A DNA stretch of 55,376 nucleotides, taken from the NCBI RefSeq assembly GCF_003334255.1, contig NZ_QOWU01000035.1; one strand, written 5' to 3'. Origin of the DNA: Escherichia coli (GTDB lineage: Bacteria > Pseudomonadota > Gammaproteobacteria > Enterobacterales > Enterobacteriaceae). Shown here one piece after another: positions 40,836-41,261 of the stretch. The notes beneath the pieces are model-generated. The model searched no databases and was not told the origin of the DNA. It saw only the letters and a list, made by a program, of their open reading frames with translations. Within the stretch, counting starts at the first letter, position 1; each line of letters opens with the position of its first letter. Position numbers and translations under genes: made by a program.

Positions 40836-41261
40836 ATGTGTGGACGCTTTGCCCAATCCCAAACGCGTGAAGATTACCTTGCGCTTCTCGCGGAAGATAT
40901 TGAACGCGATATTCCCTACGATCCCGAACCTATTGGCAGATACAACGTCGCGCCGGGAACCAAAGTCCTTCTGCTCAGTGAACGTGATGAACACCTTCAT
41001 CTGGATCCGGTTTTCTGGGGATATGCTCCCGGATGGTGGGATAAACCGCCGCTGATTAACGCCCGCGTAGAAACTGCCGCAACCAGTCACATGTTTAAAC
41101 CGCTCTGGCAACATGGTCGGGCAATCTGTTTTGCCGATGGCTGGTTTGAGTGGAAAAAAGAAGGCGACAAAAAGCAGCCTTATTTTATCTATCGTGCTGA
41201 TGGACAAGCTGTTTTTATAGCCGCGATAGGTAGCACACCGTTTGAGCGTGGTGACGAAGCC
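40836..41261 (+). pseudogene. yedK: SRAP-family abasic-site processing protein YedK, truncated after codon ~142 by an IS200/IS605-family junction
   Basis: MCGRFAQSQTREDYLALLAEDIERDIPYDPEPIG... matches YedK (222 aa in K-12) up to ...FERGDEA; the ORF then continues 23 codons into sequence that is antisense to a tnpB fragment and stops. Confidence 0.8.

Follow-up and report, generated by a model that had tools for sequence, protein, structure and literature searches.

The yedK gene in the Escherichia coli DNA analysed here (the window, a stretch of 55,376 nucleotides) is very probably a fixed, inherited pseudogene that arose through insertion of IS609 followed by two deletions, a reading drawn from comparison of the locus across E. 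coli genomes. The truncated allele is real but ordinary; it is already annotated and occurs in roughly one in five complete E. coli genomes. The features of the locus are collected in Table 1.

Table 1. Features of the truncated yedK locus, in window positions (LE, left end; RE, right end of IS609; slashes within sequences mark boundaries)
Feature	Position	Strand	Evidence
yedK remnant, codons 1-142 of 222	40836..41261	+	tblastn, phmmer, NCBIfam/Pfam profiles; PGAP pseudogene with identical coordinates in strain H8
Foreign tail of the chimeric reading frame: 23 codons antisense to tnpB, plus stop	41262..41333	+	ORF translation, IS609 alignment
Deletion-1 junction: CCG common to yedK (GAAGCCG/AAGG) and tnpB (GCTTCCG/GAAG); about 1.1 kb lost	41260..41262	.	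Junction sequences, alignment ends
IS609 internal fragment, 664 bp, nt 118-781 of the 1748-bp K-12 copy; LE and RE missing	41260..41923	-	95% identity to K-12 IS609; same 664-bp fragment in PMC6963479
tnpB (insQ) remnant, first ~94-95 codons; nuclease domain absent	41263..41544	-	Profile positions 1-92 of 389; PGAP pseudogene
tnpA remnant, codons 1-119 of 143; catalytic-Tyr C-terminus (..GGAPISVIRQYIEQQ) missing	41567..41923	+	Comparison with K-12 yncK and L003 tnpA; profile positions 2-112 of 126
Deletion-2 junction: GTAGCTGC, 8-nt microhomology of tnpA and the 5' stub of the deleted porin gene; about 0.7 kb lost	41916..41923	.	Junction sequences, alignments
3-nt porin stub (ATC), then DNA lying downstream of ybcM in the IS-free strain 536	41924..42247	.	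Alignments, junction sequences
ybcM, ybcL, emrE, between yedK and fliE	42248..44107	-	ORF listing, annotation comparison

The yedK remnant

The window comes from the E. coli chromosome, and its gene order around yedK is fliA-fliC-fliD-fliS-fliT-amyA-yedD-yedE-yedF-yedK'-...-fliE-fliF. The locus is orthologous to that of K-12 YedK (b1931; PDB 2ICU, 6NUA, 6KBS, 6KCQ), an SRAP abasic-site cross-linking protein encoded downstream of yedE-yedF. Its 165-residue reading frame (40836-41333, +), which starts with MCGRF and whose stop codon ends at 41333, aligns by tblastn over residues 1-142 (window 40836-41261) with the 222-residue E. coli YedK, at 96.5% identity and without a gap. The 142 of 222 residues present amount to 64% of the YedK length, which bears out an earlier note, made from the DNA alone, that had described YedK as cut to about 64% at codon 142 with the N-terminal Cys2 still encoded. 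Residues 1-143 of the query also match the PDB chains 6kcq, 2icu and 6nua in phmmer (E about 1e-97). The SRAP domain is incomplete, with only model positions 1-138 of 214 of Pfam PF02586 covered, and NCBIfam PRK09951 is matched over positions 1-143 of 222 with 324.6 bits, under the 349-bit cut-off. In contrast to K-12 YedK, with which it is collinear over residues 1-142, the remnant lacks residues 143-222, carries R85H and gains an unrelated tail of 23 residues. This tail, encoded by codons 143-165 (41262-41330), is read antisense through the part of IS609 that encodes the TnpB N-terminus; the reading frame, tblastn and the IS609 alignment agree on the exchange of the C-terminal ~80 residues for 23 antisense tnpB codons that the earlier note had proposed. 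The same 426 bases stand as an incomplete SRAP pseudogene in the RefSeq entry of strain H8, which is identical to the window over 40700-42300. A terminator-like hairpin and T-run (GCCATTGCGTTTCAGTGGC ATTTTT; 41334-41352, +) begins immediately behind the chimeric frame's stop codon, within the antisense tnpB; like the other terminator-like matches of the scan it is a consensus match only. A promoter scan found no match.

Frequency of the truncated allele

The counts come from a search of 5426 complete E. coli genomes with tight queries of 240 bp at the junctions. The left junction of the window (deletion 1) was found in 1111 of these and the right junction (deletion 2) in 1102, while the junction of IS609 with the yedK stop codon (State B, below) was likewise found in 1102 of the 5426. 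The 3' 240 bp of yedK are present in 4253/5426 genomes, always at a single place, and the 5' 426 bp in 5378/5426. Adding 4253, 1111 and the 48 genomes with no yedK gives 5412, which does not exceed 5426 and fits truncated-allele genomes that are devoid of any yedK 3' segment. A count of 2068 genomes for the allele was rejected, the joined match pieces having merged intermediate and truncated states. Carriers of the truncated allele include O25b:H4-ST131 and an O78:H4 avian strain.

These counts bear on two simple explanations of the short gene. A YedK that is naturally short in this lineage is contradicted by the presence of the 3' end in 4253 genomes and by the intact alleles examined, all of which encode 222-223 residues. 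The window is a single sequence, and a sequencing or assembly artefact, by frameshift or mis-join, is conceivable for it as a general possibility; its probability is negligible, however, because the identical 240-bp junction recurs in 1111 independently assembled complete genomes and the break is a 1.1-kb deletion that involves no frameshift.

Three states of the yedK locus

Sequence comparison resolves three states of the locus together with their junction sequences. State A, represented by strain 536, consists of a full yedK (222 aa), intergenic DNA, a porin gene, ybcM, ybcL, emrE and fliE, and contains no IS. In State B (AW1.7, OkiPb01704 and CFSAN029787) a full yedK (223 aa) lies directly against a full-length tnpB (387 aa) on the opposite strand, meeting its 3' end, and beyond tnpB follow a degenerate tnpA, the intergenic DNA originally downstream of yedK, a 40-bp porin stub and ybcM-ybcL-emrE-fliE; in CFSAN029787 the right end of IS609 is intact. 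Two deletions separate State C, the window, from State B.

The left flank of the State B element reads ...GGCTTAT/CCGGTGCGCC, with the TTAT flank also found at the K-12 copy, and its right end reads ...GGAGGATGTCAA/CAAACAGGTTG (RE boundary ...GGATGTCAA/CAAACAGG). In strain 536, whose site is empty, these two flanks adjoin each other directly. The TTAT target corresponds, in reverse complement, to an ATAA that overlaps the TGA stop codon of yedK, and insertion at this point changes the end of the protein from ...QPV to ...QPVC, leaving YedK intact with one extra Cys. By its junctions, State B arose by clean transposition of IS609. A secondary internal deletion of 103 bp, between GTGGAG repeats close to the right end, is found in some State B copies, while others keep the segment. 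The RE of the State B element (L003 5133-6781; L007 4120-5800, in two of the comparison loci) adjoins yedK, and its predicted TnpB guide RNA would therefore run antisense to the final codons of yedK (CAAACAGGTTGAATTAAC). Neither the window region nor an intact IS609-yedK junction yielded a match in Rfam.

In the window and in State B the porin deletion has left the same junction, GCTGCATC/TTAACG (GCTGCATC/TTAACGTAT), which marks State C as a descendant of a State-B-like ancestor. Direct transposition of IS609 into yedK at codon 142, with truncation at a later time, would agree with an IS table in which the entry for strain 28Eco12 is a truncated IS609 of 664 bp "inserted within the yedK gene" (PMC6963479), and with the position of the IS fragment against the yedK break. 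Such an event is very unlikely, since the junction falls at IS609 nt 781, deep in tnpB and not at an end of the element, and the yedK breakpoint GAAGCCG/AAGG offers no TTAT target. In addition, IS609 lies at the yedK stop codon of 1102 other genomes, oriented as in the window and bounded by clean TTAT and RE flanks, and those genomes have the downstream porin-deletion junction in common with the window. On the junction sequences, IS609 is placed first at the yedK stop codon and not inside the gene.

The IS609 fragment

Window 41260-41923 aligns to nt 781-118 of the K-12 IS609, a member of the IS200/IS605 family located at ydcL-ydcO with insQ/tnpB and the tnpA pseudogene yncK, and is 95% identical to it over nt 118-781. 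Both have the same divergent tnpA/tnpB layout. In contrast to the K-12 element, the window keeps only 664 of 1748 bp, has neither LE nor RE, and encodes a TnpB that ends after ~95 of 402 residues and a TnpA without its catalytic-Tyr C-terminus. The subterminal hairpin ends of LE and RE with the TTAT flank, visible in K-12 and in the genomes with IS609 at the stop codon, are absent from the window. TnpA keeps the HVHL motif of an HUH/Tyr transposase, but its C-terminal ..RQY.. segment has been exchanged for unrelated sequence. Similarly, the pair of a full-length TnpB and an RE-derived guide RNA is not found, TnpB being reduced to residues ~1-95 and RE deleted. Judged by what it retains, the remaining IS609 core is dead and immobile.

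The tnpA reading frame continues to 42091 through unrelated DNA. At 41567-42091 (+) PGAP calls this frame an intact 'IS200/IS605 family transposase' (WP_001347174.1); the frame is a chimera of IS609 tnpA codons 1-119 and 55 codons of unrelated DNA in place of the catalytic-Tyr C-terminus. The naming of WP_001347174.1 looks like an annotation error that has spread over >1000 genomes, and a chimeric tnpA frame that still bears the name of an intact transposase is flagged here as an annotation problem.

Deletion junctions and proposed origin

Deletion 1 joins yedK ...GACGAAGCCG to tnpB GAAGAAGTTTTTG... across CCG; the match to yedK extends as far as 41262 and that to IS609 begins at 41260, the overlap being the CCG. 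The earlier note had observed that the break of yedK coincides with the end of the TnpB coding sequence and had suggested that one deletion took the yedK 3' end together with most of tnpB. Both points agree with the junction, where the two homologies share CCG at 41260-41262 and a single 1.1-kb loss between CCG sites turns State B into the window sequence. Relative to State B, the window has lost yedK from codon 143 to codon 223, TnpB codons ~96-387 and the right end of IS609. At deletion 2, tnpA ...CAGTAGCTGC runs into the porin stub ...TGTAGCTGC/ATC by way of GTAGCTGC, with loss of the last 24 tnpA codons (among them the catalytic-Tyr segment ..GGAPISVIRQYIEQQ), the IS609 left end and the old intergenic region. 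Microhomologies are thus present at both deletion junctions.

In the proposed course of events, the ancestor would have had a yedK-fliE interval with the porin gene and ybcM-ybcL-emrE, into which IS609 (IS200/IS605 family) would have inserted 3' of the TTAT overlapping the yedK TGA, with the tnpB 3' end and RE facing yedK. This stage would have left YedK intact at 223 aa with its extra Cys, the porin gene also being deleted. A 1.1-kb deletion between CCG triplets, in one event or several nested ones, would then have removed yedK codons 143-223, RE and TnpB ~96-387, and finally a 0.7-kb deletion between GTAGCTGC octamers would have removed the tnpA 3' end, LE, the intergenic DNA and the porin stub. 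We infer this order of the deletions, and likewise replication slippage or illegitimate recombination as their mechanism. The IS609 remnant of the window is ~95% identical to the sampled State B copies, compared with 97.3% for the flanking yedK. With the IS609 core more diverged than the adjoining yedK, the sampled State B genomes are cousins and not direct ancestors of State C, and one has to assume either neutral decay of the core or gene conversion between copies of IS609.

Intact alleles (L002, L003, L004, L005 and L007) are more diverged in yedK codons 143-222, with pS of 0.14-0.28 between states, than in codons 1-142, where pS is 0.03-0.09. The last 240 bp of yedK are only 90-95% identical to strain 536 in most genomes. 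This 3' divergence suggests a recombination boundary beside a variable islet.

Residues kept and lost by the truncated YedK

Cys2, which directly follows the initiator Met, is the thiazolidine-forming nucleophile of SRAP. Read off the collinear alignment, this residue and Trp67, Trp68, Asn75, Arg77 and Glu105 are all kept in the window remnant as in K-12 YedK; active-site roles of Asn75 and Glu105 are described in PMC9436759. Thr149, His160 and Arg162 (phosphate anchor, general acid) fall in the deleted segment and are absent. These three are among the strictly conserved residues of YedK (PMC6821365, PMC9436759); ssDNA binding is abolished in the T149A and R162A mutants (PMC6821365), and cross-linking is about 10-fold slower in H160A and H160Q (PMC9436759). 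Within the part that is kept, Arg85 stacks on a DNA base, and R85A binds ~8-fold more weakly (PMC6821365). A comparison of seven yedK alleles, five intact and two truncated (window and ST131), revealed three non-synonymous codon changes confined to the truncated alleles (R85H, P125A and M128I) against two synonymous ones, R85H requiring two nucleotide changes. The pattern is suggestive of relaxed constraint, with counts that are small and too few for a statistical test.

Because its product lacks Thr149, His160, Arg162 and ~36% of the SRAP fold, the truncated yedK is almost certainly a loss-of-function pseudogene, and the 165-residue chimeric product is most likely unstable or inactive. The earlier note had anticipated a loss with possibly subtle effects. 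The loss holds; the subtlety does not, the missing 80 residues including ones essential for activity, and the outcome would therefore be loss of function and not a subtle change. Selection could instead have kept the chimera as a shortened or neofunctionalised SRAP, for example a dominant-negative form or a DNA binder with Cys2, in line with a reading frame that is still open in the window and ST131 alleles, with retention of Cys2, Asn75 and Glu105 and with an unchanged region upstream of yedK. This is highly improbable for a protein that lacks His160 as well as Thr149 and Arg162, the two residues whose alanine mutants show no ssDNA binding, that carries R85H at the base-stacking position, and that covers only 138 of 214 Pfam positions before ending in a tail of accidental antisense tnpB sequence; moreover, divergence is too small for the open frame to indicate constraint.

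Other SRAP genes

Neither a second SRAP gene nor the missing yedK 3' end was found elsewhere in the window by tblastn and low-stringency blastn. Distant blastn with the 426-bp yedK remnant returned a median of one place per E. coli genome and never more than three; plasmids accounted for 29 of the places. By the same kind of search, no DNA-detectable yedK paralogue was found in 13/13 sampled truncated-allele chromosomes, each having a single place. Homologues with ~84% protein identity to YedK are carried by Escherichia phage PHB10, by Gifsy-2 and by many plasmids of Klebsiella, Enterobacter and Serratia, and 1952 plasmid records match YedK at some level. By these matches, SRAP genes are common cargo of mobile elements in Enterobacteriaceae. 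Since they occur on phages and plasmids, such genes may compensate the loss of yedK in individual strains.

Existing records and significance

PGAP annotates the allele as the pseudogene 'SOS response-associated peptidase family protein, incomplete, missing C-terminus' in H8 (RG50_RS25435) and in O25b:H4-ST131 (QQG90_RS09600). These RefSeq/PGAP pseudogenes and the 28Eco12 IS609 entry represent the same allele, with the same coordinates and junction as the window and no structural difference, and they leave the origin of the allele and its functional loss undiscussed. No dedicated study of the yedK pseudogene or of a link to ST131 was found in the literature, the table entry in PMC6963479 being the sole mention that the search turned up.

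The truncated yedK constitutes no new system or mechanism, and its practical value is small. It may be regarded as a textbook case of an IS200/IS605 element at a stop codon, fossilised by microhomology deletions that would have taken part of the neighbouring gene with them. A large share of natural E. coli (1111/5426 complete genomes, including ST131) would be without functional YedK; YedK would also appear dispensable in the wild, and strains with the truncated allele could serve as natural knockouts for studies of bacterial SRAP. It is improbable that yedK loss gives a measurable phenotype (abasic-site tolerance, mutation spectrum, SOS dynamics) in ~20% of sequenced E. coli, the pandemic ST131 among them, or that the Cys2-bearing 165-residue stub is residually active or dominant-negative. 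If this were true, truncated-allele lineages would be natural yedK knockouts in which the loss has contributed to evolvability.

Genomic surroundings

The yedK-fliE interval is a variable islet that holds yedL-yedN'-intG' in K-12, the porin gene with ybcM-ybcL-emrE in strain 536 and ybcM-ybcL-emrE only in the window; window 41927-44440 was compared here with L002 6259-8563 and L005 4225-6000. In K-12, ybcM, ybcL and emrE also occur in the DLP12 prophage. Homology to K-12 resumes at window 44304, inside the intG prophage-integrase remnant. Upstream, the yedD gene of the window (38758-39108, -) differs from those of K-12, ST131 and H8 by an in-frame deletion of 66 bp, or 22 codons (GNTIEYDGMTMERVDRPTAECA), with its junction at 38799-38808, and encodes a YedD of 116 aa compared with 137. 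The deleted segment is present in 5375/5426 complete genomes, which makes the yedD allele of the window rare, at most about 1%. The flagellin gene (33656-34705, -) encodes a short H4-type FliC of 349 aa that differs at one residue from its counterpart in an O25b:H4-ST131 isolate; over the surrounding 14 kb, identity to that ST131 genome is 99.3-99.4%. The source is therefore an H4 strain close to, and not identical with, ST131 at this locus.
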